Part shown: one piece after another, positions 22,049 through 59,701 of the stretch
Numbering within the stretch: the first letter of the stretch is position 1
Layout: the number at the start of each line of letters is the position of its first letter
Assembly (NCBI GenBank): GCA_965247295.1
Contig: CBDFGQ010000008.1
Span: forward strand, 64,080 to 128,079
Direction: 5' to 3'
Source: Dehalococcoidia bacterium
GTDB taxonomy: Bacteria; Chloroflexota; Dehalococcoidia; Lucifugimonadales; JAGWBF01
DNA: 64,000 bases
The notes under the pieces: generated by a model
What the model saw: the letters and a program-made list of their open reading frames with translations, nothing else
Databases searched by the model: none
Told to the model about the DNA's origin: nothing
Position numbers and translations under genes: made by a program

Positions 22049-24130
22049 ATGGCTAACGGCTGGTTTCTCAAGCCCAAATGGCTCCTCTTCGTTCCCCTGC
22101 TCGCAGTGCTTGTACTTGCGATAGCGTGCGGTGACGAGGGGACACCTATCGTCATCGAGAAAGAGGTGATCGTCGAGAAAGAGGTCATCAAGGAAATACC
22201 TGTAGAGAAGCAGGTGATCGTCGAGAAAGAGGTCATTAAAGAGGTACCTAAGATCCAGATCGTGGAGAAAGAGGTCATCGTAGAGGTACCTGTAGAGAAA
22301 CAAGTGGTGGTCGAGAAAGAGGTCATCAAAGAGGTGATCAAAGAGGTACCGGTGGAGGTAGTGAAGGAAATAGAGGTTGAGAAAGAAGTGGTGGTGGTGG
22401 AGCAGGTTATCGTCACTCCCACCCCCCAGCCGAGGCTTCAGTATGTATCGCCGGTCTGGGTGAAGAATGGTAAGTATGGCGGGTCCCCCGATTTCGCCGC
22501 CGCCGGAAGCAACCCGGGCGCCATTGACCTTCACTACTCCAGCAGCTTCACCTCGGGCCTTGGCGTCCACGGGGCCAGGTTCAACAACCTGGTGATGTTC
22601 AACCCGGTCGACTCCTCGGAGGTGATCGGCGACCTGGCGGTTGGTTGGGACGTGAGCTCGGACGGCAGGACCTACACGTTCTACCTCGCCCCCAACGCCA
22701 ACTGGCACGACGGCAAGCCCGTGACCGCCGAGGATATCCGGTTCAGCATCAACAGGATAGGGGACCTCACGGCCAACAGGCCCAGGGCCGGCGCCGCGGT
22801 GAGGCCCTTCTACACCCCCGGGAACTCCAGGGCGATAGATGAGAAGACCTTCGAGATGACCCTCAAGTTCGCGTCGGCGGGCTTCATACCGTGGATGGCC
22901 TTCGACTACGCCAAGATGTACCCCAAGCACATCGTCGAGAAGCTGACCCAGGATGAGATGAACTCCTGCTACGAGTGCTACTTTGGCTCCGGGGCATGGA
23001 AGTTCGTGGAGCTTAAGCGGGACAGCCACATCATGTGGGAGAAGAACACCGACTACTTCAAAGACGGTTTGCCCTTCTGGGACGGCTACACCCAGTTCAT
23101 CATCAAGGACGACGCCAGGAGGCTGGCCTCTCTTACGACCGAGCAGGTGTTGGGGACGATGTACAACTCATCCACCCCATCATTAAGTTCCTTCCTGCAG
23201 GTGCAGGAGGACACCGGCGGCAGGGTGCTGGCCACAACATTGCCCAAGGCGTCCATTGGCGGCCTACAGCTCAATCACCTCAAGCCGCCCTTCGACGACG
23301 TCAGGGCGAGGCGTGCCGTCATGCTTGGCCTCGACCGGGTGGAGATCGCGAAGACCGTTTATAAGGCAGAGCCCTGGCAGTCCACCTTCTTCCCGCCAGG
23401 AGCCAGCGACAGGGGAACGGACTGGTACGACGCCAACATGCCCGGCTGGCGGTATGTCGACAGTGCCGGCAACATCGTGGTGGACCCGGTAAGGGTCGCG
23501 GGCGTCGTCAAGCACCCGGATGACATAGCGGAGGCGAAGCAACTGTTAATAGATGCCGGTGCTGTGGGAGCAAAGATCGAGGTGCGCACTGGATCGCCGG
23601 CGGGCTCGGTGAATGCCCAAGTTGCCGTCCTGATCGAACGGCAGATGGACGCTCTCGGTTTTGACGCGGATGCGGTCCTCACGGACATAGCCGCCTACCA
23701 CATAGAAGTGAACAAGGGCAACTTCTCCTTGGTCATCAACAGCACCTGGTTAGAGGAGTCGGACGCCAACAGCGTGCTGTTCCAGTATTACAATCCCGGC
23801 GGGGGCAGGAACACGCTGGGCTGGTCAGATCCCGTCATACTGGACGGTACCGAGGCGCAGCTCAGGGCAGCTACCCCTGCGGACCGGAAGACGATAGTGA
23901 TGGCGATGGAAGACTACCTGATGAAGGGGGAGAGCCACTTTGTGCCGTTGCATTTGGCGAGCCTGCAGGGGGCGCTAAACGTGAAGATCAGGAACTATCA
24001 CGACCGCACCCCCGGCGGAGCGTCCGTGTCCAGCAACAGCTCGTACTATCAGGAGCACCTGTGGTTGGATAACGACGCCACGGCCGCTGACGGCCTGGGC
24101 GCGGGCCATACGCTAGTGCCGCTAAAATGA
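22049..24130 (+). CDS. ABC transporter substrate-binding lipoprotein, family 5, SBP3
   Basis: I prefer the ATG at 22049 (AAGGGAGGCGTGATC-ATG). Lipobox-like LAIAC-GDEG, the longest EKEV tether of the three, and a core collinear with SBP1 (DGKPVTAEDIRFSINR, WEKNTDYFKDGLPFWDG). Confidence 0.9.
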   Translation: MANGWFLKPKWLLFVPLLAVLVLAIACGDEGTPIVIEKEVIVEKEVIKEIPVEKQVIVEKEVIKEVPKIQIVEKEVIVEVPVEKQVVVEKEVIKEVIKEVPVEVVKEIEVEKEVVVVEQVIVTPTPQPRLQYVSPVWVKNGKYGGSPDFAAAGSNPGAIDLHYSSSFTSGLGVHGARFNNLVMFNPVDSSEVIGDLAVGWDVSSDGRTYTFYLAPNANWHDGKPVTAEDIRFSINRIGDLTANRPRAGAAVRPFYTPGNSRAIDEKTFEMTLKFASAGFIPWMAFDYAKMYPKHIVEKLTQDEMNSCYECYFGSGAWKFVELKRDSHIMWEKNTDYFKDGLPFWDGYTQFIIKDDARRLASLTTEQVLGTMYNSSTPSLSSFLQVQEDTGGRVLATTLPKASIGGLQLNHLKPPFDDVRARRAVMLGLDRVEIAKTVYKAEPWQSTFFPPGASDRGTDWYDANMPGWRYVDSAGNIVVDPVRVAGVVKHPDDIAEAKQLLIDAGAVGAKIEVRTGSPAGSVNAQVAVLIERQMDALGFDADAVLTDIAAYHIEVNKGNFSLVINSTWLEESDANSVLFQYYNPGGGRNTLGWSDPVILDGTEAQLRAATPADRKTIVMAMEDYLMKGESHFVPLHLASLQGALNVKIRNYHDRTPGGASVSSNSSYYQEHLWLDNDATAADGLGAGHTLVPLK
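22145..22411 (+). repeat. in-frame (V/I)-E-K-E-V tether repeat inside SBP3 (~89 aa)
   Basis: PIVIEKEVIVEKEVIKEIPVEKQVIVEKEVIKEVPKIQIVEKEVIVEVPVEKQVVVEKEVIKEVIKEVPVEVVKEIEVEKEVVVVEQV. Confidence 0.85.
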
Positions 24131-33138: not shown

Positions 33139-33684
33139 CGCGCCGACGATCTGTACCACGTGTATTCTGGGAGAGTCCTACTCGCCGGCGGCATTCATCT
33201 GTTCTACCAGATCATTTAGTTCATCCACTTGGTTGTTGAGCTCCTGACCTAGGTCGTTAAGGCTTGTTCGAGCGTCTTCTAGTTTTGTATAGGCTTTATC
33301 AACCTCTGAATATGGCACCGTATTCATTACGTGTTGGTCTTCCATCTCTTTGTATTCAGCTTCCAGCTTCTGGTAATCTTCCTTGATCCTCTCGTAATCG
33401 GCAGCAAGACTGTCATGTATTGCTTCAGCTTCTTGATGCTGGTCACGCAGCTTGTTATATTCAGTCATATCCCTACATAGCAAATGTGTCACATAAATAT
33501 CGAACCGCCTTGGTCTTGCATCCCCAAATATAATCTTTGGTTTGACAAATACCCCGATGCCGCCTGTGTCATAGCTTTTCTTTATCATGTTTTTATAGTG
33601 TCCTGGACTATTAAGCCACCCAGTAAATGTGGTGGATGAGATGTAATCGGCGTCGTCCTCGATTTCATCCCTGAAACTAAATAT

Positions 33685-34098
33685 GTTTTCGCCACATAGC
33701 AAAGTAGTCTCTGAGTCCTGCAGACTCCACACGATCCTTGAGGTTCCAGCCCTTCTGGATTGACATGGTCGAAGAAGTCTCGATTCGCTTTTCATATCCT
33801 CTGAGTGTGATATCGCAAGCCTCCCAGACAATGGGTGAATTAGGCGTGAGTATCGGTAAATCGTCCTGTTTACCCTCATTTCATTAATATCGTTTTCGCC
33901 ACAGGAGTACACTTCTGAGTCCTGCAGACTCCACACGATCCTGAGGTTCCAGCCCTTCTGGATTGACATGGTCGAAGAAGTCTCGATTCGCCATATCCTC
34001 TGAGTGTGATATCGCAACTCTCGACAAGGGTGAATTAGGCGTGAGTATCGGTAAATCTCTGTTTACCCTCATTTCATTAATTCGGTTCGCAAGGAACA
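33685..34098. repeat. ~207-bp tandem direct duplication inside the CAP-domain gene (two units plus the homologous start of a third)
   Basis: Unit 1 is 33685-33891 and unit 2 starts at 33892; both begin gttttcgccaca. Both contain ctgagtcctgcagactccacacgatcct(t)gaggttccagcccttctggattgacatggtcgaagaagtctcgattcgc. They differ by small indels (aaaa, a). Confidence 0.85.
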
Positions 34099-34444
34099 CT
34101 TCTGCGTGGCGATACCGCTGACTGTTGGAGGCCATTGGTGATGGGGTAGGAGCAGGTACCGGTATAGACGTTGGAATGGGTTCAGGCGTCGCGGTGGGTG
34201 TGGGTACCAGCGTAAGGGTTGGGGCAGGATTCGATACAGGGGTTAGCTGGCGAGAAGTTGTTGGTGAGAAGGTGGGCCTAGGTACCGGCCTGGGCGTTGG
34301 AGTGGGTGTAGCTGTTGGAGCAGGCGAAGACGACGGTGTGGCAGTGGGTAAGGCATCTAGAGTTGCCCTGACACCCGCGGCAATGGCGGTCCCGGTGTCC
34401 AGCGTTGGTGCAGAGGTTTGAGTAGGTAATAAGGTGAATGCAGG

Positions 34445-34471
34445 CGTTGGAGTGGGAGTAGATGAGGAATC
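34445..34471. repeat. donor copy of the 27-nt repeat (inside the PT-linker of the CAP lipoprotein gene)
   Basis: cgttggagtgggagtagatgaggaatc, identical to 34682-34708. Confidence 0.9.
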
Positions 34472-34644
34472 TGGTGCCGGAGTAGGACTAGGTCCAGATT
34501 GGGCGCACGCAACCCCGATAATTGCCAGCAGGGCAAGTAGGCTAAGGGCGAAGTACTGGAGCACGTTCCTCTCTTCGCCTTGCCGTGAGCTAAGCGCCGA
34601 GCCTCCCGACAGCCGCCGCGTGCTGAAGGTCGGCACGGTAGGAG

Positions 34645-35511
34645 CTACGGACCAGGGGACCAGAGGCCACGTGGGCGAATCCGTTGGAGTGGGAGTAGAT
34701 GAGGAATCAGCGACTCCCCGAGGCGTCTGAGCTCGTCGAACTCGGCGGGGGTATAGAACCGGTCCACGGGTATGTGCTTCTCGGTAGGGCGGAGATACTG
34801 CCCGATGGTGAGCAGGTCGCAGCCCACGCCCCGCAGGTCCTCCATGGTCTCCACGACCTCGTTCCACTCCTCGCCCATCCCGAGGATGATCCCCGACTTG
34901 GTGGGAATGCTGGGGTCCAGCTCCTTAACCCTGGCCAGCAGCTCCAGGGAGCGCTCGTAGTCCCCTCTGGGCCGTACCCGGGGGAAGACCCTGCGCGCGG
35001 ACTCGATGTTGTGGTTGAGGACTTCGGGCCGGGCAGCAACCACTTTCTTTAGACCGGGCAGGGAGCCGTCGAAATCGGGGATGAGGACCTCTACTTTGCA
35101 GCCGGGCACCTCCTGGTTGATTTTGCGGATGCACATGGCGAAGATTAAGGCCCCTCCGTCGGCCAGGTCGTCCCTGTTCACCGAGGTGATGACGCAGTAA
35201 TTGAGGCCCAGGCGCTTCACCGTGCGGGCCAGCCGATCCGGCTCCATCAGGTCGATACCGGCGGGCCTCCCTGTGGTGACAGCGCAGTAGTGGCAGCGGC
35301 GGGTGCATATATCTCCCAGGATCATGAAGGTGGCGCTGAGCCGCTCCCAGCACTCGCCGATGTTGGGGCAGCGGGCCTCTTCACATACGGTGTGCAGCTC
35401 CGAGTCGCGCAGCAGGTTCTTGAGTCCGATGAAGTTGGGCCCCCCGGGCATCCGCACCTTCATCCAGTCCGGGAGCCTGCGGCCTGGCTGAGCCGCGTGA
35501 ACCTGAACCAA
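34645..35511 (-). CDS. lipA: lipoyl synthase (as assembled, with an aberrant frameshifted C-terminus)
   Basis: CEEARCPNIGECW (auxiliary cluster) and CTRRCHYCAV (radical-SAM CxxxCxxC). The last ~25 aa (IPHLLPLQRIRPRGLWSPGP) are non-LipA. The conserved tail GFAHVASGPLVRSSYRA... is present in the +1 frame and ends at 34590. Confidence 0.9.
   Translation of the reverse strand: MVQVHAAQPGRRLPDWMKVRMPGGPNFIGLKNLLRDSELHTVCEEARCPNIGECWERLSATFMILGDICTRRCHYCAVTTGRPAGIDLMEPDRLARTVKRLGLNYCVITSVNRDDLADGGALIFAMCIRKINQEVPGCKVEVLIPDFDGSLPGLKKVVAARPEVLNHNIESARRVFPRVRPRGDYERSLELLARVKELDPSIPTKSGIILGMGEEWNEVVETMEDLRGVGCDLLTIGQYLRPTEKHIPVDRFYTPAEFDELRRLGESLIPHLLPLQRIRPRGLWSPGP
34682..34708. repeat. second copy of the 27-nt repeat; its core 25 nt (34683-34707) is an insertion in the lipA 3' end
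   Basis: Identical 27-mer. Removing the 25 nt restores the conserved LipA C-terminus. Confidence 0.9.
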
Positions 35512-35587
35512 CGCATTCTCCTTAGTCGATCCCAGAGGCGCTGAGTCACAGAGCTATCCGATTGACCCTACCTCGGTGTCTCCTTGG

Positions 35588-36217
35588 CTACTCAATCGAA
35601 ACGCGACGCGGCGGTATGCGGCACTTCTCCGCCACCATGATGGCGTCTATGCAGGCCACCGCGTCATCCAGGCGGCCGTCCCTGTTCACCACCACGTAGT
35701 CGAAGGAGGGCAGCTGCTCCATCTCCTGACTGGCGATGCGAGTACGGAGCTCCAGGTCCACGGCTGAGTCGGTGGCCCGGTCCTTCAGGCGCCGCTGTAG
35801 CTCCTCCATGGACCCGGGGGCCAGGAAGATGAATATCGCCTCGGGCGCCAGAGTCTTAATCGTGGCGGCGCCCTGTACATCTACCTTCACTATAACATCC
35901 AGCCCCCTGGCCATGGCCTCGCTCACCTGCCGCTTTGGTACGCCGTACCAGTTACCATATACCTGGGCGTGCTCCAGGAACTCGCCCCTCTCCACCATCG
36001 AGGGGAACTCTCCGGGCTCAAGGTAGATGTAGTCAACCCCGTGGGTCTCACCGGAGCGCCTCGCGCGCGCGGTGGCGGTAACGGCGAAGTGCCAGGGCCG
36101 GTCCAACCTTCTAAGTTGTACCAGTGCCGCGTCCTTCCCCACGCCCGAGGGGCCCGACAGCACTACCAGAAGCGGGCCCGCCGTTGGTTGGGAGTGGGGC
36201 ACGGATCGGTCTCTCAA
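35588..36217 (-). CDS. gmk: guanylate kinase
   Basis: P-loop VLSGPSGVGKDA. 209 aa. Its ATG overlaps the aroA stop (ATGA). Confidence 0.9.
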   Translation of the reverse strand: MRDRSVPHSQPTAGPLLVVLSGPSGVGKDAALVQLRRLDRPWHFAVTATARARRSGETHGVDYIYLEPGEFPSMVERGEFLEHAQVYGNWYGVPKRQVSEAMARGLDVIVKVDVQGAATIKTLAPEAIFIFLAPGSMEELQRRLKDRATDSAVDLELRTRIASQEMEQLPSFDYVVVNRDGRLDDAVACIDAIMVAEKCRIPPRRVSIE

Positions 36218-37539
36218 GGCTCACGGTCGCCCATGGTCTGCTGTCCTTCGGATGAATGGACCAGGTCCTCCATTTGCGCCCAAAACCGCGGATAGGATAC
36301 GGCGGCTACATCCTCCCCCTCTACCTCGGTCTCGCCATCCGCCAGCAGCCCGGCCACTCCGAGTGCCATCGCGAGTCGGTGGTCGCCGTGGCTCTGGCAC
36401 AGCGCCCCATTCAGGCGACCCGTACCGTGAATCGCCATGCCGTCGGGCCGCTCCTCTATGTTGGCCCCCAGGCGGGAGAGTTCCATGACCGTGGAGAGGA
36501 TCCGGTCGGACTCTTTGACCCTAAGCTCCTGGGCGTCCTTTATGACTGTGGTACCACTGGCAAAGCAGGCGGCCACGGCCAGTACGGGAATCTCGTCTAT
36601 GATCCTGGGTATAGCGTCGCCTCCCAGTTCTATAGCTGTAAGGTCGCTGGACTCCACTATCAGGTCTGCCACCGGTTCCCCTCCCTCATGGCGAGGGTTC
36701 TCCTGGGTGATCCTGGCGCCCATGTGGGAGAGGGCTTCGAGGATGCCGGTCCGAGTTGGGTTGACCCCGACTGCCCTGATCACTATCCTGGCCTCGGGGT
36801 GGCACACGCCCGCCACCATCCAGAAGGCGGCGCTGCTGATGTCTCCCGGTATGTTGACGTTTACGGCCGAAAGCTGGCTGGGACTCAGCCGAACCGTGAG
36901 CCCATCCTCTTCGACGTCTCCTCCCATGGCCCTGACCATGCGCTCCGTGTGGTCCCGAGAACGGGCGGGCTGGTGGATCACTGTCTCACCCTGGGCAGAC
37001 AGCCCCGCCAGCATAACGGCTGACTTAACCTGGGCACTGGCCACAGGCATCGCGTACTCGATGCCCTTCAGGCGTTTGCCCCTTATCACCAGGGGAGCGT
37101 GGGCGTCGTTATCTCTACCCAGAATCTGGGCGCCCATCAGCTTCAGGGGCTGCACGACTCGGCCCATGGGGCGGGAGCGCAGGGAAGAATCGCCGCTCAG
37201 TACCGACAGGAAAGGCTGGCCGGCAAGCAGCCCGGCGAGGAGGCGCAGTGAGGTGCCGCTGTTGCCCGCGTCCAGGACATCATCAGGCTCTTGAAGACGA
37301 TCATGGGGGCCGTACACGGTAACGGCGCCCCCGCCACCCTCGTCCTCTATTTGGACACCCAGTCCCCTCAGACAACCGATAGTGGAGACAACATCCTCGC
37401 CGTTGGAGATGCCTGTGATCCTGGCTACCCCGGAGGTCATGGAGTTGAGGATGAGGGCGCGATGAGAGATGGACTTGTCCCCTGGCAGTGCCACAGAACC
37501 GCGCAACGCCGGGGGCCTCCGGAGAACTCGCCTCGACAC
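36214..37539 (-). CDS. aroA: 3-phosphoshikimate 1-carboxyvinyltransferase (EPSP synthase)
   Basis: LPGDKSISHRALIL motif. I prefer the GTG at 37539 (GGAGAGGG upstream, 11 nt after the tyrA stop) over the track start at 37626, which would overlap tyrA by 77 nt. Confidence 0.85.
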   Translation of the reverse strand: MSRRVLRRPPALRGSVALPGDKSISHRALILNSMTSGVARITGISNGEDVVSTIGCLRGLGVQIEDEGGGGAVTVYGPHDRLQEPDDVLDAGNSGTSLRLLAGLLAGQPFLSVLSGDSSLRSRPMGRVVQPLKLMGAQILGRDNDAHAPLVIRGKRLKGIEYAMPVASAQVKSAVMLAGLSAQGETVIHQPARSRDHTERMVRAMGGDVEEDGLTVRLSPSQLSAVNVNIPGDISSAAFWMVAGVCHPEARIVIRAVGVNPTRTGILEALSHMGARITQENPRHEGGEPVADLIVESSDLTAIELGGDAIPRIIDEIPVLAVAACFASGTTVIKDAQELRVKESDRILSTVMELSRLGANIEERPDGMAIHGTGRLNGALCQSHGDHRLAMALGVAGLLADGETEVEGEDVAAVSYPRFWAQMEDLVHSSEGQQTMGDREP

Positions 37540-37549
37540 CCCTCTCCGC

Positions 37550-38587
37550 CTACTTTTTCTCTTTGCTGTCCCTGCCGCCTCTGTCTCTCCAGCCAAAGAG
37601 GCGGCTACGGGCACCGGGGTCGCCAAAGACTAGGGCAGACATGCTTTCAGTGGCCGACGGGACCCGAGAGTCCGGGGCGCCGTGCCGCGACGAATGCGTC
37701 ACCATGCCGGCAAGCCACCTGTTCCGGGCCACGACTGCGTCGGTGAAGATCTTATCCAGAGCTTCCAATTTGCCGTCGTCGTCGCCGGTCAGGATGCGGC
37801 GAATCTCGTATAGCTCGCGAATGAAGGTATCTATCCAGTGCACCAGCCCCGGATTGTCGCCGGCGAACACGTCTCGCTGGATGGTAGGGTCGCCCGAGGT
37901 CAGGCTGGTCTGGTCCCTGAACTGGGTGGAAGCCAGCTTGGCGATGTCATCCCAGGAAGGACTTTTGGAGGTGCAATTGACCAGGGCCACCGATAGCAGC
38001 AGCGGTAGGTGACTTACTGCGGATACGAAGCTGTCGTGCTCCTTCACGTCCATGAAGTAGGGCTTGGCGCCTATGGCCCGAATCACGTCCGTCAGCAGTC
38101 TTACGGCCTCCTGGCGAGTTCCGGTGGCTGGAATTATGCAATATGGCTTGTCCTTGAAGAGCGAGCCATCGGCTGCCTCCGGGCCGGAGCTCTCCTTGCT
38201 TACCATGGGATTTCCTCCCACGAAGCTCACGCTCCGGGGGAGGTACTGCTGGGCCCAGTCCAGGACGACAGACTTTGAGCCGCCCGTATCGGTTACCAGG
38301 CAGCCCTCGCGAAGACGGGAACTCATGGCCTGGAACACGTCTTTCATTGCCATTACAGGGGTAGCCACGATCACTAACTCGGCATCTTCCACCGCACTCG
38401 CCAGGCTTCCCACCGCCCTATCCACCGCTCCCATCCGATGTGCCTTCCCGGCATGGCCCCGCTCTCGGTCCGTGCCGACGATCTGGATATCTTTGATGCC
38501 GGCCTGCTTTATCGCAAGCCCCAGTGACGTACCGATGAGGCCCGTGCCGACTATCGCTACGTTATACAACCTGACCTCCTTAGACAT
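37550..38587 (-). CDS. tyrA: prephenate (arogenate) dehydrogenase
   Basis: Rossmann motif VAIVGTGLIGTSLGLAIKQAG and a catalytic-region FVGGNPMV (GGHPM-like). 345 aa. Confidence 0.85.
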   Translation of the reverse strand: MSKEVRLYNVAIVGTGLIGTSLGLAIKQAGIKDIQIVGTDRERGHAGKAHRMGAVDRAVGSLASAVEDAELVIVATPVMAMKDVFQAMSSRLREGCLVTDTGGSKSVVLDWAQQYLPRSVSFVGGNPMVSKESSGPEAADGSLFKDKPYCIIPATGTRQEAVRLLTDVIRAIGAKPYFMDVKEHDSFVSAVSHLPLLLSVALVNCTSKSPSWDDIAKLASTQFRDQTSLTSGDPTIQRDVFAGDNPGLVHWIDTFIRELYEIRRILTGDDDGKLEALDKIFTDAVVARNRWLAGMVTHSSRHGAPDSRVPSATESMSALVFGDPGARSRLFGWRDRGGRDSKEKK

Positions 38588-38617
38588 ACCGCCGGACTTA
38601 CCATCCGGTACAGCCAG

Positions 38618-39403
38618 CTAGAACTCATCCTCTTCTTCCTCCGGGGATGACTCTCCCGGTGGCGAATACGCTGAGTGTGGCAGGGTGACGTTCGGTTTCT
38701 TGGACTTGGTGCGCTGGCGTCTTGAGAGGGCCATGAGGCGCTCTTTCAGCGCCGCAAGCTCCTTGCGGGTGAGTGAGGTGGCGTCCACAACCAGCCCGTC
38801 GACTCCGATGTCCCTCAGAGCCTCCAGTTCGGCCGCCGTGGGGGCTCCGGATAGCTCCAGCAAGAGATATTTGCTGAACGCGCTCCGTACCGATCCTATG
38901 GTCATGAGATGTTCGACGGTCAGGGGCAGCTCCGCAGACTTGAGGGGCAGCAGTACGGCGTCCACGGGCAAGTCTTCTATAGCCCGGAGGTACCGTTCGT
39001 CCATGTCGGGCTCAATACACAGAACGTAGGCCGTATCGCCGTCTTCCAGAGCACTCAGCTGGGTCCCACCCGGTCCAAAGGCCAGGAAATCGCATTCCTT
39101 GTCCCTATATTGGGTTGCCTGTTCGGCGGTCAGTTCCCCGACTTTAATGCCCCAGGGGACGTCATTCAGTTTCGATGCCAGCTCCTTGACTACGGCTTCG
39201 ATATCCATTCCTTCAATGATCGCGCCATCGGCGCCGATCTTTGCCAGGGAGGTGGCCCCCTCGGAACGCCTCTTTGGCCCCGATATTGAGCCCAGTAGGG
39301 CCATGGGCGCCACTTTCTCGGGCCGTGCTGAGGCAGTACCGAACCCGAGGGAGTTGGTGGCTCCGCGATCGATCCTATCCAGCCTGTCTAGAAGCCTGCT
39401 CAC
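38618..39403 (-). CDS. hypothetical protein with an acidic C-terminal tail, first gene of the tyrA-aroA-gmk string
   Basis: 261-aa clean ORF with coding-like composition. I recognise no motif. It ends in SPEEEEDEF. Confidence 0.6.
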   Translation of the reverse strand: MSRLLDRLDRIDRGATNSLGFGTASARPEKVAPMALLGSISGPKRRSEGATSLAKIGADGAIIEGMDIEAVVKELASKLNDVPWGIKVGELTAEQATQYRDKECDFLAFGPGGTQLSALEDGDTAYVLCIEPDMDERYLRAIEDLPVDAVLLPLKSAELPLTVEHLMTIGSVRSAFSKYLLLELSGAPTAAELEALRDIGVDGLVVDATSLTRKELAALKERLMALSRRQRTKSKKPNVTLPHSAYSPPGESSPEEEEDEF

Positions 39404-39873
39404 TCGCTCCTTTTCAACGGGAGACTGGCCGGGCGAGACGCCTCTGTGACACGCCTCGCCGTGTATACGCCGTCAGTCCTGACTGGTTACATTATATCTG
39501 ACCTCGTGTTGCCCTGTCCAACGGCGCGCGATCGAGTGCGCTCACCGCAATCTTGTGCTCAGAGTCGCACCCATCGCGTGCCGAATGCAACGGGTATCCC
39601 GTGATGCCTATTACGGTACCAAGGCGGCATCAGGAATATGCTAATAGTTTAGTGAGTGATGATACACGGATGTGGGCTCACATGTTGGCGAAGGAGGCAG
39701 AGGAACGATACGGCAACTTTTGGGCGAGGTTGCGCCGGCCCTTGGGGAATTGGTGAAATGTGTTTCCATGGGGATCATAGCCGGGGTACTTCTCATTTCA
39801 CCGTGGGTGTAGCTTAAAAAGACATCGTTCTAGACCACCAGGGAGATGTCGTACCAGCGTATTGGGTGAGGGG

Positions 39874-39902
39874 TGTACAGGCCATTAAAGGGCGGGTATA
39901 AT
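39874..39902 (+). promoter_or_regulatory. candidate promoter (TGTACA-17-TATAAT) preceding a ~135-nt leader
   Basis: tgtacaggccattaaagggcgggtataat, with a perfect TATAAT at 39897-39902. Confidence 0.4.
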
Positions 39903-40037
39903 GCCGCTCGTGATGGGGCTCCCTGAAGCTGGTGAACGGTCGGGGGCGTCCGCAAGCCAGTAGGCCTGCCGCCAACAAGACTAGCTCTGGGACCACCGCT
40001 GGGTCCAGTACAGGAGGCCAAGCTGTCCTATCGCCAC

Positions 40038-40964
40038 GTGGCACTTCGCGGAAAGCTCACCTCGCTCAATCTGCCTCCCGCTCATGGGACCCTGGGGCTG
40101 ACTCTGATCGCGGTGGCCTGGCCCATTTCCTGGCTTCAGGTCTATCCCCTTAGCGAGTACTCTTTCTTTCCCCTCTGGCTGGGGTACATCCTCGTCGTCG
40201 ATTCCCTCGTTCTGTGGCGCAAAGGCACCTCACTACTGGTCCGTAATCCTCTGGGCTTCGTGGGGATGTTCCTGGCGTCGGTCCCTGCCTGGTGGGCCTT
40301 CGAGGGGATGAACTACTTTACTCAGAACTGGCACTATGTGGGCGCCGAGGAGTACTCTGCCCTCGAGTATGTCCTGGTAGCTTCGTGGCACTTCTCCGTA
40401 GTCGTGCCAGCCGTGCTGGAGACCGCGGAACTAGTGGGCTCCTTTAGCTTCGTGAGCCGGTTGCGACGAGGACCCGGCGTGCCGGTAACTCCTCGTTTCC
40501 TTAATGTCTTCATGGCGCTCGGGCTCCTGTTCATTTTCGTGGGGGCCCTCTGGCCCGACTATGCCTTCCCGGGTATCTGGGTATCGCTGTTCATAGTGCT
40601 CGACCCGATAAACTACCTTCGGGGCCGACCCAGCGTCCTGTCGTGGGTCGGTCGTGGGGACTGGAGGCTGGTGCTAGCACTGGGAATGGGGGCGCTGCTC
40701 TGTGGGTTGTTTTGGGAGATGTGGAACTACTGGGCCTTCCCGAAGTGGCACTACACCATCGCCTTTGTGGATTTCGCCCACATATTCGAGATGCCCTTGC
40801 TGGGTTATGGGGGCTATGTGCCGTTCGGGCTGGAGGTCTACGCTATTTACCACTTCCTGAGGGGCCTGGTAGGAGGGACTCCCGACGACTACGTGCGAAT
40901 CGTTGAGGTCCGTCACGTGCAACGGACTTCGGCTGGGGCCGTGGAGGTCGGTCCAGAGGATTGA
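40038..40964 (+). CDS. polytopic integral membrane protein, function unknown
   Basis: 308 aa with many hydrophobic segments (LTLIAVAWPISWL, FFPLWLGYILVV, FVGMFLASVPAWWAF...). The start codon is uncertain because AGGAGG lies 22 nt upstream of the GTG. Confidence 0.65.
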   Translation: MALRGKLTSLNLPPAHGTLGLTLIAVAWPISWLQVYPLSEYSFFPLWLGYILVVDSLVLWRKGTSLLVRNPLGFVGMFLASVPAWWAFEGMNYFTQNWHYVGAEEYSALEYVLVASWHFSVVVPAVLETAELVGSFSFVSRLRRGPGVPVTPRFLNVFMALGLLFIFVGALWPDYAFPGIWVSLFIVLDPINYLRGRPSVLSWVGRGDWRLVLALGMGALLCGLFWEMWNYWAFPKWHYTIAFVDFAHIFEMPLLGYGGYVPFGLEVYAIYHFLRGLVGGTPDDYVRIVEVRHVQRTSAGAVEVGPED

Positions 40965-41122
40965 CGCCGCCGGATGCCCACGGTCGCGTAAGTGTTGGAG
41001 TCCAAAGTGTGACTGGGGTCACTGACCCATGGACCGGCATGGGGTAAGATGGACTTTAAGAGGACCGATGTCGGGTGGGGGCCAGCGGCATCAGTAGGGC
41101 GAATTCGTCCTACTGACGCGAG

Positions 41123-41162
41123 CCGCGCAAAGGTCCAAGGTAGCCTTTGTGCGGCGGTTTTG
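41123..41162 (+). terminator. intrinsic terminator
   Basis: Stem CCGCGCAAAGG / CCTTTGTGCGG (one G-U pair), 10-nt loop, then CGGTTTTGTGT. It overlaps the track start of ORF 41147, which argues for a later start of the subtilase gene. Confidence 0.65.
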
Positions 41163-41215
41163 TGTCTATGAGGTTGCGCGAAATAAACAGAGACCTACGG
41201 GAAAGGCTGTCGACT

Positions 41216-44200
41216 ATGTCCGTCAGGTATGTCCTGGCTCTGGCCCTTTTCGCGCTGCTTTTATCGGTTTCTCCAGCTGTCCAAGGCCTTCTGGCCAGTA
41301 CCGGCTCCGCATCGCATGTTCAGGATGGACAGCTGGAGCCGCCGGAGGCACCAGCATCCAGTCCGTCCGTGGAGGCTTCGGCTCCCACTTGGCCCGAGTC
41401 CAGTCAACAGGTCCCCCAGCCGGCTGATCCGCCGTCCAGCCTCAATTTCCTGCTCAAGAGCGCCGGACAGGGTGCCGATGCCCCAAATGAAGAGACCCTC
41501 TTCTCGTACCGAATCCCGCTGAGCGGCAGCTCTCCTTCCTTTTGGGACGATCCCCCCAGCAGCCCGACGGTGGCCGTGGCCGAAGTAGATGGCGAGAGGT
41601 TCATTTCCATCTCACCGGGTCCCGAGGACCGGGTCAACGTCATAGTGCAGCTCAAAGACGAGCCGGTAGCGGTCAAGAAGGCACGGACGGCCGTGGTCCA
41701 GGTGAGTCAGGGCGCGGTCCATGCCCGCCAGGTTGTCCGCGACCACCAACAGAAAGTGCTTGAGACACAAGCCAGTGTGATGGCGTCCATGGCCGAAGAG
41801 GGTTTGTCATTCGCCATGAAGCAGTACTACTCCTACGCCTTTAACGGCGTTGCGGGTTCCGTGAAGGCAAAGGACATCCCGGCCCTCACCCAGCTTGCCC
41901 AGGTGCAGAAGGTGTATCGGGATTACGAGGTACACGTGACCCTCGACGATAGCGTCCCTCTAACAGGCTGCTGAAAAACTCTGAGGTCTACTCAGGACTC
42001 AAAGCGGGTCGACGATAAGCGACGCCACATTGCGCTTCCTGCACCAATAGCTCTAAACAAACTATGATATGACGGATATCGTTGGACTACTTGACGCTCC
42101 ACCCACCACGTCTGTACGCCTTGCCCTTTTTCCGCAGCCTGCTAATAGGTGCGCCGAACGTCTGGCAGCTCGATGACTCCCAAGGCCAGTCTGTAACCGG
42201 TAAGGGGACCGTCGTGGCCATCATAGACACCGGCGTGGACTATACCCACCCTGACCTGGGAGGATGCCTGGGACCCTCCTGCAGGGTCATAGGCGGGTAC
42301 GACTTCGTCAATAACGACGCCGATCCCATGGATGACATGGGCCATGGCACCCACGTGGCCGGCATCGTGGGCGCGCGAGGAGCCAGCACGGGCGTAGCCC
42401 CCGAGGTGAGCTTTCTGGCTTATAAGGTCCTGAGCAGCTCTGGCAGCGGGAGCTTTTCATCCGTCATCGCCGGCATAGAGCGGGCCACCGATCCCGATGG
42501 AGATCCAAACACGGACGATGCGGCAGATGTCATCAACCTCAGCCTGGGTGGTGCGGGCGACCCGGACGATCCCGTGAGTCAGGCGGTGGACGCCGCAACG
42601 GGCCTGGGAGTTACCGTGGTGATATCCGCGGGGAACAGCGGTTCCGGATACCAGACCATCGGCTCGCCTGGGGTAGCCCGCAGGGCAATTACGGTGGCTG
42701 CCACCACCAAGTCGGATGTCATCGCAGGGTTCAGCTCTCGGGGCCCGGTCCCCGGCGAGTGGGCCATGAAGCCCGATATCTGCGCTCCCGGGGTAAGCAT
42801 AGTCTCGGCGGTGCCTGCGGCGGGGGTACTGGGACATCCCTCCCGCTACCTGAGCCTCAGCGGGACCAGCATGTCCGCGCCCCACGTTGCGGGAGCGGCG
42901 GCGCTCCTGAAGCAGCTCCATCCTGCGTGGACGCCCGAGATGATCAAGGCCAACCTGATGAACACTGCCCTGGACCTGAGCTACGACGCATTCACCCAGG
43001 GTGCGGGGCGTATGCGCGTGTACAAGGCGACACAGGCGGGGGCTACCCTATCTCCCGGAAGCCTCAGCCTGGGCATGGACGACCTGACCCAGGAGATCTG
43101 GCAGGTCGACAGGACCCTGACCATCACCAACGTCTCTGACTCCGCACGGACCTACGCTATCTCGGTGGAACATGCCCTTCCCACTGGGGCCCTGGCCACG
43201 GCCGATACGGACTCGGTTACCCTGACTCCGGGCCAGTCCAAGCAGCTGCTGTTCCGACTCTCGGTGGACAACGGCGTCGTCCCCAACGCCCCCTCGGAGC
43301 CCTTCTCCTTCGAGGGTGCCGTGGTGGCCCGGTCCGGCGACGAGGCCCTGCGGGTCCCCTTCGCCTTCATCAAGAGCCCGGTGATCAACTTCACCTTCGA
43401 CGAGAATCCCTGGATCGTGTGGGTCCACGACAGGGCCGGAAAGTCCTACTTCAACGCTTTCCCTGGGACATCCCTCCAGCTTCCCGTGTCGACGGGCGGC
43501 ACCTACGCCGCGGTGGTCACCTACCGCGGCGTGGACACCCGGGTCTTTAAGGAAGGTATAGTGGTCCAGACCGGGGCCAACGTGACGGTGAGCAAGGCCG
43601 ACGCCATCCACGACGTCGCCATCTCCCCGGTGGATATCGAGGGCAAAGCCCTGTCCATTAGGTACGGTGGAGAGCTGGTGGAACACAAGGAGTCGGGACT
43701 GGGCCTGTACTTTATCTTCGGTTTTCCAACCCAGCGGCGTTTCTCCAACATCAGCAACGCCTATTCGTGGGAGTGGGGCGTGACCCGGAGCGCCATGAGC
43801 GTGGACCCGGTCTACGACTTCAACGGGTTCGCCAATGATGGCGTCACGGGCGACCTGCTCTTCCAGTTCCAGCCCGAGGACCTGAAGCACCTTGCCTTCG
43901 ACTACATCACTCCTCCGGGCCTCGAGAATCTCCTGGTACGCCATTGGCTCAGCAGCGGCCCCGTGGGTGCGGTTTCCTTCACCCTGTATCACACTCAAGA
44001 GACTAGTACACTTAAGGCGCCCTTCGTGCGAGACGTGTACTTCACGCCCAACCCCTATCCTGACTTTCCCTTTGGGTATTTCTATGAGGATGCATACCCC
44101 TTCGATGCGGCGACGGGCCAGGTTCTCTGGGACTCCCAGATGACGCAGACGCCCCACTTCGCGGCCAGGGACACCACCACCGTCGATGCCTACCTGTCGG

Positions 44201-47200
44201 GGGCACCCGATGACCCGGTGCTGACCACAGACTCCTCTCGTATGCCGGTGGCCCTGCCGCCACCTCACTGGTTCGGCCGCTTTACCAATACTGAGTCCAG
44301 TATAGACCTGCGTGCGTCCATAGGCTGGCAGGACTGGTTCTTCCTCAATCAGATGCAGGACTTGACCCCCGACCCGGACCTGCCCTTCGAGCTGCGCTTG
44401 GGTACCGGCGACCTGATCGCGTCCGGGGACCTCTATACCATGGGTGTCGTCTCGGCGGCTTCGGGGGACTACACCTTCAAAGCCACCTTCGACCAGTACT
44501 ATCTGGCGGGAACGGGGGGCCGGGCTACCGTCACGGCCGGATTTGATACTCGAGGCGTGGACAAGGACCCCCCGGCCATGCGTGACCTGAAGGTGCTGCT
44601 GGCTGGAGAGGCGTCCGATACGGTGGCTCCCACGGCCTCCGGCGAGGTCCGCGTGGCCTTCACCGAGGTCCTTCCGGCGCCGCCGAGCCTACGCTACAGC
44701 ACCGGCGATGGCGACGAGCTGAGCATTACCTGGAACGCGCTGCCGGTGAGCGACCTGGGCTCGGGAGATTACAGCGCCACCCTCCCGGTCCTGCCCAACA
44801 ACACCAACGTGTCCTTGAGTATCTATGCCGAGGATGCTTCGGGGAACTACCTACACTATCGCGTGCTCCCCGCCTTCGCCGTCGCCCTGAGCGTCCCCAG
44901 GCTTCTGTCGCCCCCCGACGGCTACCTTACGGGAGACCTTGACATAACCTTTAAATGGGAAGCGGTGCCGGGCGCCATAGCCTACCGCATTCAGATCGAC
45001 ACGGGTGGCGCCTTCAGCTCACCCAACCTGATAGACGCTGTCGTGACGGGCGACACCAGGTACACGGCCAGCCTTTCCAAAGGGGCCCACTACTGGTGGG
45101 TGCTGGCCCGGGACAGCCAGGACAACGAGAGCGCCTGGTCCACCGTGTGGCGGCTGACCGTAGCCGACACCGTGGTGCAGGTCACTGCCCATTCGGGATA
45201 CGACGCCAACCCCTCTATCATGCAGGCCAGCGATAGCACACTGTGGCTAGCTTGGATGGCCTGCAGGCCCCAGTGCGGGATCTGGTACAAGACCGGCGAC
45301 GCCTCTGGACTTGCGTGGTCTCCCGCGACCGAGCTCACGGCGGGCAGTACCTACGGCAATGATTCCCCATCCATTGCCCAGAGCACGGGGGGACGCATCT
45401 GGGTGGCGTGGCGCGCCCGGCGCGATACCAACCCTGGAGGCATCTGGAACAGAGACATCTTCCTGAAGACCAGCGACGACAACGGCGCCACCTGGTCCGC
45501 CGAGACCCAGCTCACCGTGCATACCGCCGATGACCACAGCCCCGCCATAACTGAAACCAACGACGGGAAGATCTGGCTGGTGTGGCACTCCGACCGGGAC
45601 GAAAATGATGACCTGTTCAATGATGACCTGTTCTACAGCACCAGCGACGATGGGGGCCTTACCTGGTCCGCCGATACTCAACTCACCGTCCACACCGGCA
45701 ATGACCGGTACCCCGCCATCGCCCAGATGGCCGATGGGAAGGTCTGGGTGGTGTGGTATGGCTGCCGCCCCCACTGCCAGGTGTGGTATAAGACGAGCTC
45801 CGACGGCGGCACCACCTGGTCCCAGGAGGCCAGGCTCACCCAGGGTTTCAGTATCGCGTACCCCGCCATCGCCCAGACCCCCGATGGGCGCGTCTGGGTG
45901 GCGTGGTACTCATATCAGGATACCAATCCCGCCGGCATTGGCAACTCCGACGTCTTCTACAAGTTCAGCGACGACAATGGGGCCAACTGGTCCCAGGACA
46001 TCCGGTTCACCCACCACCTTGGCGATGACTGGGACCCAGGTATCACACCCCTCTCCCCCGGTAACCTTGGCCTGATTTGGAGCTCCTCTCGGGCCGGCAA
46101 CTACGACATCTGGTACGGCATACCCGGCGTGCGGGAGGACGTGAGCCCCCCACCCGTAGTCCAGGCGGCCACCCACCTGCCCGCTCCCAACCCCGACGCC
46201 AACGATGTGGTCACCGTCACCGCCCGCGTTCTGGACGAGTCCGGTGTCGCCGGTGCGGCATTGGTCTGGACCGTGAATGATGTTGCCACGGCGGACCGCC
46301 CCATGTACGACGATGGCGCTAACGGGGACGGCCTGGCCGGAGATGGGACTTTCGCTGTCCAGATCGGCCCCTTCCCCGCCGGGACCCGGGTCTCCTACCA
46401 GGTACGGGGAACTGATATTGAGGGCAACTCCGTGGTGGATCCTCAGACGCCTAAGTCATTTGTGTCCCTGGAGCCCTTCGTAGGGACATCAAACATCCTG
46501 CTGGTGCTGGATGACAGTTCCCCTGGCATCGGCGATAGGTTCTACAAGGATGCGCTTGCAGACCTGGGGCTGCCCTTCGACTTCTGGGATGGGACTCTCA
46601 GGGGCTTTACAGATCTGACCACCCTGAACCAGTACCTGGGTGGAGTGGTGATATGGTCCATGCCCGACTTCGCCTTCCGGCTGAACGACGAATTCCCGGG
46701 GGTTGTGGCCGCTTACCTGGACGGCGGGGGGAGGCTGTTTGTCAGCGGGCAGAACGTGGACTTTTACATGAGATACAGCGGATTCTACCTGGACTACCTG
46801 CATGCAAACTTCGTTCAGGACGACACCAACGTCCTCGCCTTGAAGGGAGTAACGGGGGACCCCATCAGCGACGGCCTTAGATTCAACATCGCCGCGGGAG
46901 ACGGGGCCAACAACCAATTCGGGCCCAGCGAGATCGACCCCATCTCCCCTGCGGTGCCCGTGCTCCTCTATGATGAGACCGTCGTCCTAGCCGAGGGGGT
47001 GGCGCCCCAATCCCCTGACCACGAAAAGGAGGGAGTGACGGCCCCCTCCGACAACTCCGAGGGTGGGGTGGAGGCCTCCGCGATCCTCTCCAGCGGCACC
47101 GCCGCACTGCGGGTAGACACCGGCGTGTACAAGGTGGTGTATTTCGCCTTTGGCTTCGAGGCCATCAGCTCCCGGCAGCAGCGGGCCCTGGTGATGCAGG

Positions 47201-47649
47201 GTGTCCTGGACTGGCTTATCCAGGCGCCCACCAGTTCCATATCCGGCCGCGTGGACCTACAGTGGCGGTCCGACGACGCTGGGGCCCTGGTCTCCCTGGT
47301 GGGCACTGGGACCGGCGCGCTCACCAGTGCGAATGGGACCTTTGTGCTGGAGGGAGTTGCGGCGGGGACTTACAGTGTGGAGGTGACGCTACCCACCTAT
47401 CTCCCGGCCACAAGGACCGGTATAATCGTATCTGGCGGACAGGTGACGCAGCTGCCCACTGTGGTCCTGACGGGTGGTGACGTGACTCTGGATGGACGGG
47501 TTGATCAGGGCGACCTCGCCAGTCTGGTCCGCGACTTAAATGTGGTCGGAAGCGGGCCGGGTCGAGACCTGAACCAGGATGGGATGGTGGACCTCCTTGA
47601 CCTTGGCCGGGTAGGGCTCAACTTTGGCCTGGCGGAGAGCAGGTGGTAG
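41216..47649 (+). pseudogene. giant secreted subtilase (signal peptide, inhibitor-I9 propeptide, S8 catalytic domain, BNR/Asp-box propeller, regulatory-like beta domain, dockerin-like tail) interrupted by a MITE
   Basis: Signal peptide MSVRYVLALALFALLLSVSPAVQG. I9-like segment VNVIVQLKDEP...YSYAFNGVAGSV...VQKVYRDYEVHV. Catalytic triad blocks VAIIDTGVD, HGTHVAGIV and GTSMSAPHVAG. Asp-boxes SDDNGATWS, SDDGGLTWS, SSDGGTTWS and SDDNGANWS (45.2-46.1 kb). C-terminal DVTLDGRVDQGD...DLNQDGMVDLLD. The reading frame is broken at 41964-42145. Confidence 0.85.
41964..42141. mobile_element. 178-bp MITE (non-autonomous relative of the IS5-like element at 56949-58316)
   Basis: Ends CAGGCTGCTGAAAAACTCT... 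and ...TTTTTCCGCAGCCTG. CTAA target-site duplication at 41960-41963 and 42142-42145. No coding capacity. Confidence 0.85.
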
Positions 47650-56749: not shown

Positions 56750-56948
56750 GCGGCAGGGTATCTGGATCATTGGCTTCGCGACCTATGCCACACGCATGCG
56801 TCTCTCATGCTGAGGCAGGGTGTCCACCCCAAGATCGTCCAGGAACGCTTGGGACATGCGACGATCTCCACAATATTGGATACCTACAGGCACGTTCTGC
56901 TGGGCCTTGAGGAGGCCATGGCACTGCGGTTCGAGGAAGGGCTTCTAG
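56750..56948 (+). pseudogene. tyrosine-recombinase (integrase) 3' remnant, 5'-truncated and disrupted near its 3' end by the IS5-like element
   Basis: The frame directly following the TPR gene stop reads ...LRDLCHTHASLMLRQGVHPKIVQERLGHATISTILDTYRHVLLGLEEAMALRFEEGLL. This includes the catalytic-region R..H..Y blocks. It continues after the IS as EFPRPVALPKPV* (58321-58358). Confidence 0.75.
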
Positions 56949-58316
56949 CAGGCTGCTGAAGAAAGGGTTCTATGGTCGCGAAACGACCTGGTAATAGCTC
57001 ATATCGTTGCTCGATGAGTGCTTTGGGAAGGTCTGAAGCCACTTTCCTGGGTTGCAGGAGTTCCCTTTTCGCCCCTGTCAGGGCGTTGAGGGCAGACTCC
57101 GTCCTTGGGAAGTCATGCTGCCTGCAGGACCGGAGCCTCCTGTAGCTGGGTCATGAGCAGCTTGGCCATCCGCACCAGGTTATACGCAGTGGCCACCAGG
57201 TAGCCTGCTAGTCCCGTCTTGTCCACCCCTCGATACCTGGTCTTCCGAAACCCACCGACCGTCTTCATCCACCCGAAGATCTCCTCCACCCGCTTTCGTA
57301 TTCGCTGGCTCACCCGGTAGCCCGGATGCCGGGTTGTCCGCCCGTCGATGGCGCTGCGCCGGCCACTGGTGTTCTGGGCCACGTGAGCCGTGACCCTTCG
57401 GTTGCGCATCGCTTCCACACAATCCCGCGTGTCGTAGTTCTTGTCCCCACCCAGGGTCCTGGGGTGGAAGCCCCGCTCCTTCGCCCCCTCCAGGAGCTTC
57501 GGGACCGCATCTCGCTCCGCCGTCCCGCTCGCCTCGCTCACCTGGAAGTCCGTCAGCAGCCCGTTCCGGTTCTCCATCAGGGCGTGGGCCATGAACACCA
57601 GCTTGGCTTCCTTCCCTTTGCCTTTCCGAAACAATCGGGCTTCCGGGTCCGTGGTGCTTTGGTGGGTCTTATTGCGCCGTTTCTCCCCGTGAAAGTCCAC
57701 CGACGGGTTGCCGGGGTCCCCGTCGTCCGAGGCCGGCTCTCCCCCTTTGGACTTGAAACTTTTCAGACTGGCCGCCGCCTCAATCAGCGTCCCATCCACG
57801 GTGAAGTGCTCGTCCGAGAGCAAGCCGTGCCGGTCGGCCCCCACCAGGACCGTGGCAAACAGCTGTTGCCCCACTGCGTGCTCCAGCAGCCGCTGCCGGT
57901 TCTTGGTGAACACCGTCGGGTCAAAGCTGGACTCCAGGAGGTTCATATCCAGGAACCAACGATACAGCATGTTGTAGTCCAACTCCTCGCAGAACGCCCG
58001 CTCGCTGCGCACGGAAAACAGGGCGATGAGCAGCGAGGCCTTGAGTAGGCGCTCCGGTGGGATGGAGGGCCGCCCTACCTCGGCATACATCCGGTCAAAC
58101 TCGGAGGACAGCTCCCGGAGGGCCTCATCCGCCAGCGCCTTGATAGTCCGCAAGGGATGGTCCGGCGGCACCCGCCCGTCCATATCCACGAAGGTCAACA
58201 TGGGGACCTGGGGCTCCTGGCATCCGCGCATTGGGGCACCTCCAAAGATGGTCTGCCCCTATTTTATCCCAGAAGAGCCTCGGATACACCGTGAACAAGA
58301 GTTTTTCCGCAGCCTG
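56949..58316 (-). mobile_element. IS5-family insertion sequence (1368 bp)
   Basis: Imperfect ~15-bp terminal inverted repeats CAGGCTGCTGAAGAA / TTTTCCGCAGCCTG. CTAG/CTAG 4-bp duplication at 56945-48 and 58317-20, fitting the YTAR targets of IS5-group elements. A single DDE transposase ORF. Confidence 0.85.
57113..58231 (-). CDS. IS5-family DDE transposase
   Basis: 372 aa. The N-terminal region FVDMDGRVPPDHPLRTIKALADEAL...RPSIPPERLLKASLLIALFSVRSERAFCEELDYNMLYRWFL is typical of IS5/IS1182-type transposases. FTVDGTLIEAAAS also matches. Confidence 0.85.
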   Translation of the reverse strand: MRGCQEPQVPMLTFVDMDGRVPPDHPLRTIKALADEALRELSSEFDRMYAEVGRPSIPPERLLKASLLIALFSVRSERAFCEELDYNMLYRWFLDMNLLESSFDPTVFTKNRQRLLEHAVGQQLFATVLVGADRHGLLSDEHFTVDGTLIEAAASLKSFKSKGGEPASDDGDPGNPSVDFHGEKRRNKTHQSTTDPEARLFRKGKGKEAKLVFMAHALMENRNGLLTDFQVSEASGTAERDAVPKLLEGAKERGFHPRTLGGDKNYDTRDCVEAMRNRRVTAHVAQNTSGRRSAIDGRTTRHPGYRVSQRIRKRVEEIFGWMKTVGGFRKTRYRGVDKTGLAGYLVATAYNLVRMAKLLMTQLQEAPVLQAA

Positions 58317-58366
58317 CTAGAGTTCCCCCGGCCGGTGGCTCTTCCCAAACCCGTGTGAGCAAATTG

Positions 58367-58504: not shown

Positions 58505-59701
58505 TTAAGCCTTTTGCGGGTCTGATATCTCGGTCATGTAAATCTTTTGTAAATCTGACCCCATAAAATTCTCGAAACTTTCACCCCATTGCATTACAGC
58601 TTCCCTTTGGAGACCAGGCAGGACATGAGAGTAAAGGTCTCCAGTAATTCCTATCCCCGAGTGCCCCAGCCGCTCGCTAACTACCTTGAGGTGTATTCCT
58701 TCCGCCAGCATGAGGCTGGCATGGGTATGGCGTAGGTCATGGAAGCGTATCCTACCCTTGAGTCTAGCCTTTGCAGCCAGCTTGCCGAAGATATGAGAGA
58801 TGGAGTCTGGTAGAAGAGCCGATCCGTCCAGGCGGGAGAATACTAAGCTCTCGCGCAAGAGTGTCTGTCCGAGACGGAGGGCATCCGCCTCCCTTCTCTC
58901 CCTCACTCTCTTCAAGCAGGCTACTGCTCCCAAGGGTAAATGGATCACTCGGGGCCTACCAGACTTGGGGGGTGCCATAATCAACTCCCCGGTCCTGAGC
59001 TTCACTAGACTGCGGTTAACCGACAGGGTTCCCATCTCCATATCCACATCTTGCCATCTTAAGGCCAGCAGCTCCGAGCGCCTGAGCCCGGTGAGAAGAG
59101 CCATAAGGAACAAAGGATAATAGCTGCTGCTCTGGACTACCTCAAGGAACTTCCGTACTCCTTCCCAGTCCAGAGTCTGCGACTCCCTACGCTGTGGCCT
59201 GGGCGGCTCCACGGCCTCAGCCACGTTACGGCTCAGAGCACCCATCTTAACACCCCAGCGGAGGACCTGAAATATGATCCTGTGGCAGTGTAGAACTGTC
59301 TGAGCTGATAGGCCACGGCGAAGGCAGTCGGACTCGAAGGACTGGATATGCCGGGCCGCGAGCTTCTCAAGGGCGATGCTCCCCAGGGCAGGGATAATGT
59401 ATCGATCCAAGTTGCCCCGGTAACCCTCAAGGGTGCGCTGCCTGACGTGAGTCTCGGCGTAGTCCCTAAGCCACTGGCGCAGGAAGCTCTCTACTGTTTC
59501 CCTGGAGGGCTCTACGTAGGTGCCCGTGTCAAGTTGCCCCAGCAGTTCGGTAAGACGCTTCTGAGCGTCTCTTTTGGTGCCTCGGATCACCTCGGTCTTG
59601 TACCGCTTCTTACCTGAGTCCGGGTCCACTCCGAGATATAGGTAGACTGTCCAGGAGTCCTTGTACTTGCTGGAACGTTGGCGTATGTGTCCACGGGGCA
59701 T
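58505..59701 (-). CDS. tyrosine recombinase / phage-type integrase
   Basis: 398 aa. SAM-like N-domain (VESFLRQWLRDY), catalytic blocks LTGLRRSELLAL, HDLRHTHASLML and LGHSGIGITGDLYSHV. AGGAGG RBS. Confidence 0.9.
   Translation of the reverse strand: MPRGHIRQRSSKYKDSWTVYLYLGVDPDSGKKRYKTEVIRGTKRDAQKRLTELLGQLDTGTYVEPSRETVESFLRQWLRDYAETHVRQRTLEGYRGNLDRYIIPALGSIALEKLAARHIQSFESDCLRRGLSAQTVLHCHRIIFQVLRWGVKMGALSRNVAEAVEPPRPQRRESQTLDWEGVRKFLEVVQSSSYYPLFLMALLTGLRRSELLALRWQDVDMEMGTLSVNRSLVKLRTGELIMAPPKSGRPRVIHLPLGAVACLKRVRERREADALRLGQTLLRESLVFSRLDGSALLPDSISHIFGKLAAKARLKGRIRFHDLRHTHASLMLAEGIHLKVVSERLGHSGIGITGDLYSHVLPGLQREAVMQWGESFENFMGSDLQKIYMTEISDPQKA
58537..58556 (+). repeat. TGTAAATCT x2 doublet (candidate arm-type integrase-binding sites), inside the int 3' end
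   Basis: tgtaaatct-tt-tgtaaatct. The same doublet occurs in the same orientation at 63472-63492. Confidence 0.6.

Follow-up and report, generated by a model that had tools for sequence, protein, structure and literature searches.

The auxiliary [4Fe-4S] cluster of LipA has as its fourth ligand the serine of the C-terminal RSSY motif, and Arg306 and Ser308 of this motif in E. coli LipA are absolutely required for formation of the lipoyl cofactor (PMC13232139). We compared the lipA gene in the window (the whole 64-kb stretch of DNA that was analysed) with known bacterial enzymes, both as assembled and after removal of a 25-nt insertion near its 3' end. The repaired protein aligns end to end with M. 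tuberculosis LipA (5EXI/5EXJ/5EXK; E = 6e-90 with 5EXI), including LGFxxVxxGPLVRSSYRA, and was aligned through the same stretch with 4U0O of T. elongatus LipA (4U0O/4U0P). Unlike these proteins, the assembled allele is without its last 30 residues, RSSY among them, and carries 19 unrelated residues instead.

Insertions produced by template switching, Pol-theta or alternative end joining are short exact copies of nearby sequence, and the known bacterial cases are mostly quasipalindrome (inverted) events. The lipA insert resembles such templated insertions in being a short, exact, ectopic copy of a nearby sequence in direct orientation, but differs in having only 1 nt of junction identity per side and in being seen in one assembly. 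Spurious local duplications occur at contig joins and ends in long-read assemblies. A duplication within the adjacent CAP-domain gene fits this description, since it is tandem, has insertion-dominated errors in its second copy and contains the end of a sister contig, whereas the lipA insert is non-tandem and error-free and is not of the textbook form.

The lipA reading frame and the 25-nt insertion

The gene is a member of the LipA family, and the assembled allele is a disrupted copy. The radical-SAM motif CX3CX2C is present in the assembled protein as CTRRCHYC (Pfam Radical_SAM, E = 3.5e-20), as is the N-terminal auxiliary-cluster motif CX4CX5C (CEEARCPNIGEC; LIAS_N, E = 2.5e-12), and both are intact in the repaired protein as well. 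The C-terminal RSSY, however, is missing from the assembled 288-aa frame, with LVRSSY being present after repair and in P0002, the only other member of the 90% cluster of the frameshifted protein. This loss is reflected in the match to TIGR00510, which ends at profile position 273 of 302 with 338.7 bits for the assembled protein and extends to position 296 of 302 with 378.8 bits after repair; both scores lie above the NCBIfam equivalog cut-off of 310.25 bits.

The assembled protein ends in ELRRLGESLIPHLLPLQRIRPRGLWSPGP followed by a stop, the insertion having added IPHLLPLQ and shifted the frame. An earlier note on this DNA, made from the letters alone, had claimed that removal of the inserted nucleotides rejoins the canonical LipA tail. 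Computed deletion of these nucleotides bore this out, giving a 298-aa ORF with the C-terminus GESLGFAHVASGPLVRSSYRADLQHAAAVGRLGA and a TAG stop at 34590-34592. The boundaries of the insertion were set exactly by alignment to a sister contig, L001 (described below). The same note had traced the insertion to a 27-nt copy of the Pro/Thr linker of the downstream CAP gene, and here too it was right: both copies read CGTTGGAGTGGGAGTAGATGAGGAATC (identity 27/27), and translation in the CAP gene frame gives DSSSTPTPT with a P just before. Only the spacing of 238 bp that it gave needs a small correction, as the copies lie 237 nt apart from start to start, with 210 nt in between. The 27-mer has two matches only in the 64-kb window, even with 3 mismatches allowed, and none in 100 shuffles. 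The bases flanking the two copies are unlike (G vs C before, T vs A after), and the copy therefore comprises 25 nt plus one identical base per side, an identity at the junctions that is expected by chance in about 1 in 16 cases.

Having lost the RSSY motif, whose Arg and Ser are needed for activity, the assembled allele should be inactive; this loss of function, already proposed in the earlier note, is backed by the literature on the motif (PMC13232139). No lipB, lplA, lipM, gcvH or E2 genes were found in the 64-kb window.

Table 1. Coordinates of lipA, the two copies of the repeat and the parts of the neighbouring CAP-domain gene in the window.
Feature	Coordinates	Strand	Remarks
lipA as assembled	34645..35511	-	288 aa; CX4CX5C and CX3CX2C kept, no RSSY
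25-nt insertion in lipA	34683..34707	-	ATTCCTCATCTACTCCCACTCCAAC in gene orientation; absent from L001 lipA; deletion restores the canonical tail
Target copy of the 27-nt exact direct repeat	34682..34708		25 nt plus one identical base per side
Donor copy of the 27-mer	34445..34471	-	Read in frame as part of the CAP-gene Pro/Thr linker; in the window and in L001
Displaced canonical lipA 3' end	34590..34682	-	GFAHVASGPLVRSSYRADLQHAAAVGRLGA and stop; not in frame with upstream lipA as assembled
CAP-domain putative lipoprotein gene, 5' fragment	33884..34564	-	GTG start at 34564 after GAGAGGAA ribosome-binding site
Duplication copy A, inside the CAP domain	33889..34081	-	Equals L001 exactly until the end of L001 at 33951
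Duplication copy B	33680..33888	-	Against copy A, 4 substitutions and 11 indel events, most of the latter being extra bases in B
Remainder of the CAP gene	33178..33679	-	Second half of the CAP domain and C-terminal coiled coil; collinear with homologues

Sister contigs and orthologues of lipA

An exact-sequence look-up placed the frameshifted LipA on one contig only, the window's own contig of 961,061 bp. P0002 (298 aa) is the predicted repaired LipA residue for residue, and is encoded by two ENA contigs, one of 614,618 bp and one of 89,935 bp. The shorter of these, L001 (ERZ25072076), aligns to window positions 33951-43703 with ~99.6% identity over ~9.75 kb, with 35 substitutions and 6 indel events. 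Its lipA is identical to that of the window base for base save for the missing 25 nt, so that no other decay is seen in the window gene, and the donor copy is present in its CAP linker. Since L001 has the donor without the lipA insert, the CAP gene is the donor and lipA the recipient.

We then examined the C-terminus of LipA in more distant relatives. Among the best 80 lipA loci from GTDB species representatives (Dehalococcoidia, SAR202 and sponge MAGs, at ≤83% identity), LVRSSY is kept in 77 of the 77 with a readable C-terminus, all ending in GF.HVA.GPLVRSSY. It is likewise kept in all 78 readable C-termini among the best 80 metagenome loci. None of these 155 readable Dehalococcoidia/SAR202 orthologues has the IPHLL tail (0/155), and none has the 25-mer. 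The alignment to orthologues that the earlier note had suggested as a check has thus left its insertion reading standing, and the ancestral state is seen in L001 and P0002, which are without the insert, and in the canonical tail of the orthologues. The repaired protein on other contigs, together with the motif in 155 orthologues, shows that the insertion is derived and private to this assembly. As lipA is otherwise unchanged, and is strongly conserved in all relatives examined, the insertion must be extremely young if it is real at all.

The exact junction pattern of the insertion (0-30 nt gap) had no match in GTDB genomes or JGI metagenomes. Same-species DNA was not found in GTDB representative genomes or JGI metagenomes, and a protein-based scan of the latter found no same-species contig, the best match being 79% identical.

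Comparison of the window with L001 also revealed a stretch of 1.6 kb (33951-35573), covering lipA and the 5' half of the CAP gene, with no SNPs where ~5.8 were expected (p ~0.001-0.003), the DNA on its flanks having ~3.6-4.3 SNPs per kb. The pattern points to recombination or a sweep in the recent past, linked to the low-GC CAP island. Two small differences would affect genes of L001 itself. An extra A in an AA run at L001 9267-9269 (window 34221) would frameshift its CAP linker, and a 2-bp TA insertion at window position 42314 splits its subtilase gene. Both may be real variants, or else errors of L001 that arose from low coverage.

The CAP-domain gene and other elements of the window

A CAP gene downstream of lipA was absent in 80 of 80 GTDB relatives (best 80 loci), and the gene appears to be a species-specific island. 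Its body is low in GC (42-47% vs about 62%), forming a low-GC island at 33.2-34.1 kb. The 5' fragment, which encodes a signal peptide (...IIGVAC) followed by the Pro/Thr linker and the first half of the CAP domain, is truncated by frameshift or duplication. An imperfect tandem duplication of ~205 nt (33680 to 34081-34095) splits the gene into two ORFs, 33884-34564 and 33178-34017. The indels between copies A and B amount to 17 columns, and the ratio of indels to substitutions (11:4) contrasts with that between the window and L001 (6:35; Fisher p = 7e-5). Such indel-dominated divergence looks like the pattern of unpolished long-read sequence and not like evolution.

The duplication consists of five collinear identical blocks at 33710-33888 and 33914-34081, 600-900 bp from the lipA 27-mer. 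These blocks and the 27-mer are the only short-range direct repeats of at least 20 nt and 100% identity in the 64 kb; Tandem Repeats Finder misses the duplication because of its indels. Sister contig L001 terminates inside copy A, at 33951, which suggests a spot prone to breaks in assembly. Between the two anomalies (33951-34682), 730 nt of window sequence equal those of L001 except for one AA/AAA homopolymer at 34221, at which the CAP frame is preserved in the window.

CAP homologues carry Pfam CAP (PF00188), and those of ~50% identity have a single-copy domain followed by a coiled coil. A single-copy reconstruction of the window gene scored 49.5 bits against PF00188, compared with 23-25 bits for the two fragments, and a 1-nt frameshift between ...ESAGLR and CGEN persisted after copies A and B were collapsed. 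A search for an intact, near-identical CAP protein found none closer than about 50% identity, and a look-up of cluster members for ten candidate CAP fragments returned only the window's own singleton.

Further along the window, a 182-bp MITE-like element (41964-42145) with 18-nt terminal inverted repeats and CTAA flanks is absent from L001. Its removal puts an I9-propeptide ORF (41147-41974) in frame with an ORF for an S8 subtilase of 1855 aa (42082-47649), and the element thus splits the subtilase gene in this strain. The terminal inverted repeats of an IS5-family insertion sequence at 56944-58321 (TCTAGCAGGCTGCTGAAGAA / TTTTTCCGCAGCCTGCTAGA), which encodes a DUF772 and DDE_Tnp_1 transposase on the minus strand (57113-58231), match those of the MITE, and this element is probably its autonomous parent. 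It is followed by a tyrosine integrase (58505-59701) and an rve-type transposase (61630-62649). At the other end of the window (3438-26176), four paralogous amidohydrolase genes of ~516 aa (at 3438, 5886, 10029 and 20245) are interleaved with genes for three SBP_bac_5 solute-binding proteins and two ABC permease pairs, the binding proteins having KEVIKEVPV-like N-terminal repeats (7884-8023, 22178-22353).

Origin of the insertion

More likely than not, the insertion is a feature of this one assembly that does not represent the population; the local consensus would be weakly supported, and the insertion an artefact or a variant of a single molecule. An artefact should not recur in other, independent assemblies of the species, and two other contigs indeed carry the intact protein. 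It should also lie among other signs of poor consensus; the 11 indels against 4 substitutions in the CAP duplication, the occurrence here of the only perfect short-range repeats of the window and the end of L001 are such signs. We infer from naming and size that the assembly is of the long-read type and that '2x' in the name of the L001 contig denotes its coverage. The insertion would have been taken up into the consensus of a long-read metagenome assembly where support was weak, either through an error of consensus calling or polishing or because one aberrant molecule or read passed into the contig. The lipA insertion and the CAP duplication may both reflect poor read support in this region, as with two contig ends joined imperfectly near 33.7-34.1 kb, with the duplication resembling an imperfectly merged join that retains an unpolished second copy. 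Because of this adjacent, indel-ridden duplication, the weight shifts towards a local assembly or consensus problem over a templated mutation or a population variant.

Several observations speak against an artefact. The inserted 25 nt are error-free and the sequence between the two anomalies is near-perfect, so one low-quality read cannot explain everything. No standard error mode of long-read sequencing is known to us that would place such a clean 25-nt copy at an ectopic site, and artefact routes such as a split-aligned read misplaced during polishing are speculative. A real private indel is also not implausible, since the strains differ by real indels such as the MITE. A short-read de Bruijn mis-join was rejected as a mechanism, because both flanks of the insert are contiguous lipA and the junction k-mers would therefore have to exist in reads.

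An alternative that we regard as unlikely, though it deserves serious attention, is that the insertion is a genuine and very recent loss-of-function mutation, fixed or dominant in the strain. Its origin would lie in two template switches or in repair synthesis that was primed on the CAP linker at a distance of 237 nt, and the strain would rely on scavenged lipoate or live without lipoylated enzymes. An identical donor (27/27) lies nearby in direct orientation, with one identical base at each junction, and L001 has this donor and not the insert; the flanking sequence is of high quality, and the MITE in the I9-S8 subtilase gene is another real private disruption in the strain. The closest relatives include sponge-derived MAGs, and a host-associated life, if the organism leads one, could relax selection on cofactor synthesis. 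However, the junction identity is near chance expectation, and the insertion adjoins an anomaly that resembles sequencing error. The allele did not recur in independent samples: one contig is frameshifted against two intact ones, the insertion is missing from both other assemblies of the species, and the junction scans were empty. A lipA gene otherwise free of mutations, with its motif in 155 of 155 readable relatives, implies strong constraint until very recently, and the lack of lplA, lipB and lipM within the 64 kb gives no support for salvage.

It is quite doubtful that the insertion is a real minority allele, present in a subpopulation or a single cell, which reached the consensus through low coverage while the dominant allele is intact. 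The observations in its favour are those that also favour a consensus fault, namely an insertion that is private, clean and in a locally weak region, and deleterious variants can persist briefly at low frequency, but very low local coverage would be needed within a 961-kb contig. More elaborate, and very improbable, is a single complex event of error-prone repair or replication, with several template switches within 1 kb beside the recently acquired low-GC island, that would have produced both the lipA insertion and the CAP duplication and knocked out lipA in a possibly sponge-associated strain in need of external lipoate.

That the extended frame is real coding sequence, as a new LipA C-terminus or through rescue by programmed frameshifting, is scarcely credible: beyond the existence of the open frame nothing favours it, the tail is in no orthologue, the TIGR00510 match stops early with a score 40 bits lower, the missing Arg and Ser are required for activity, and a rescue would depend on a +1 shift at CTC CAA C GGA, not a known slippery site, and would leave an 8-residue insert in place. 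Programmed frameshifting, a novel C-terminus and copying of the kind seen with diversity-generating retroelements were rejected, the copy being exact, only 25 nt long and in no relative; no reverse transcriptase was detected among ~40 window ORFs scanned against Pfam.

Returning to the reading of a local consensus fault, the best explanation of the sequence data would be that the organism has an ordinary lipA gene, encoding a functional lipoyl synthase. If the insertion is real, it would represent one very young loss-of-function allele of a housekeeping gene, relevant to the decay of symbiont genomes, and still no new kind of system. The finding matters mainly for quality control: annotation of the deposited MAG would yield a truncated or pseudogenised lipA together with a CAP-domain gene split in two, and metabolic reconstructions could wrongly infer lipoate auxotrophy in this Dehalococcoidia lineage.
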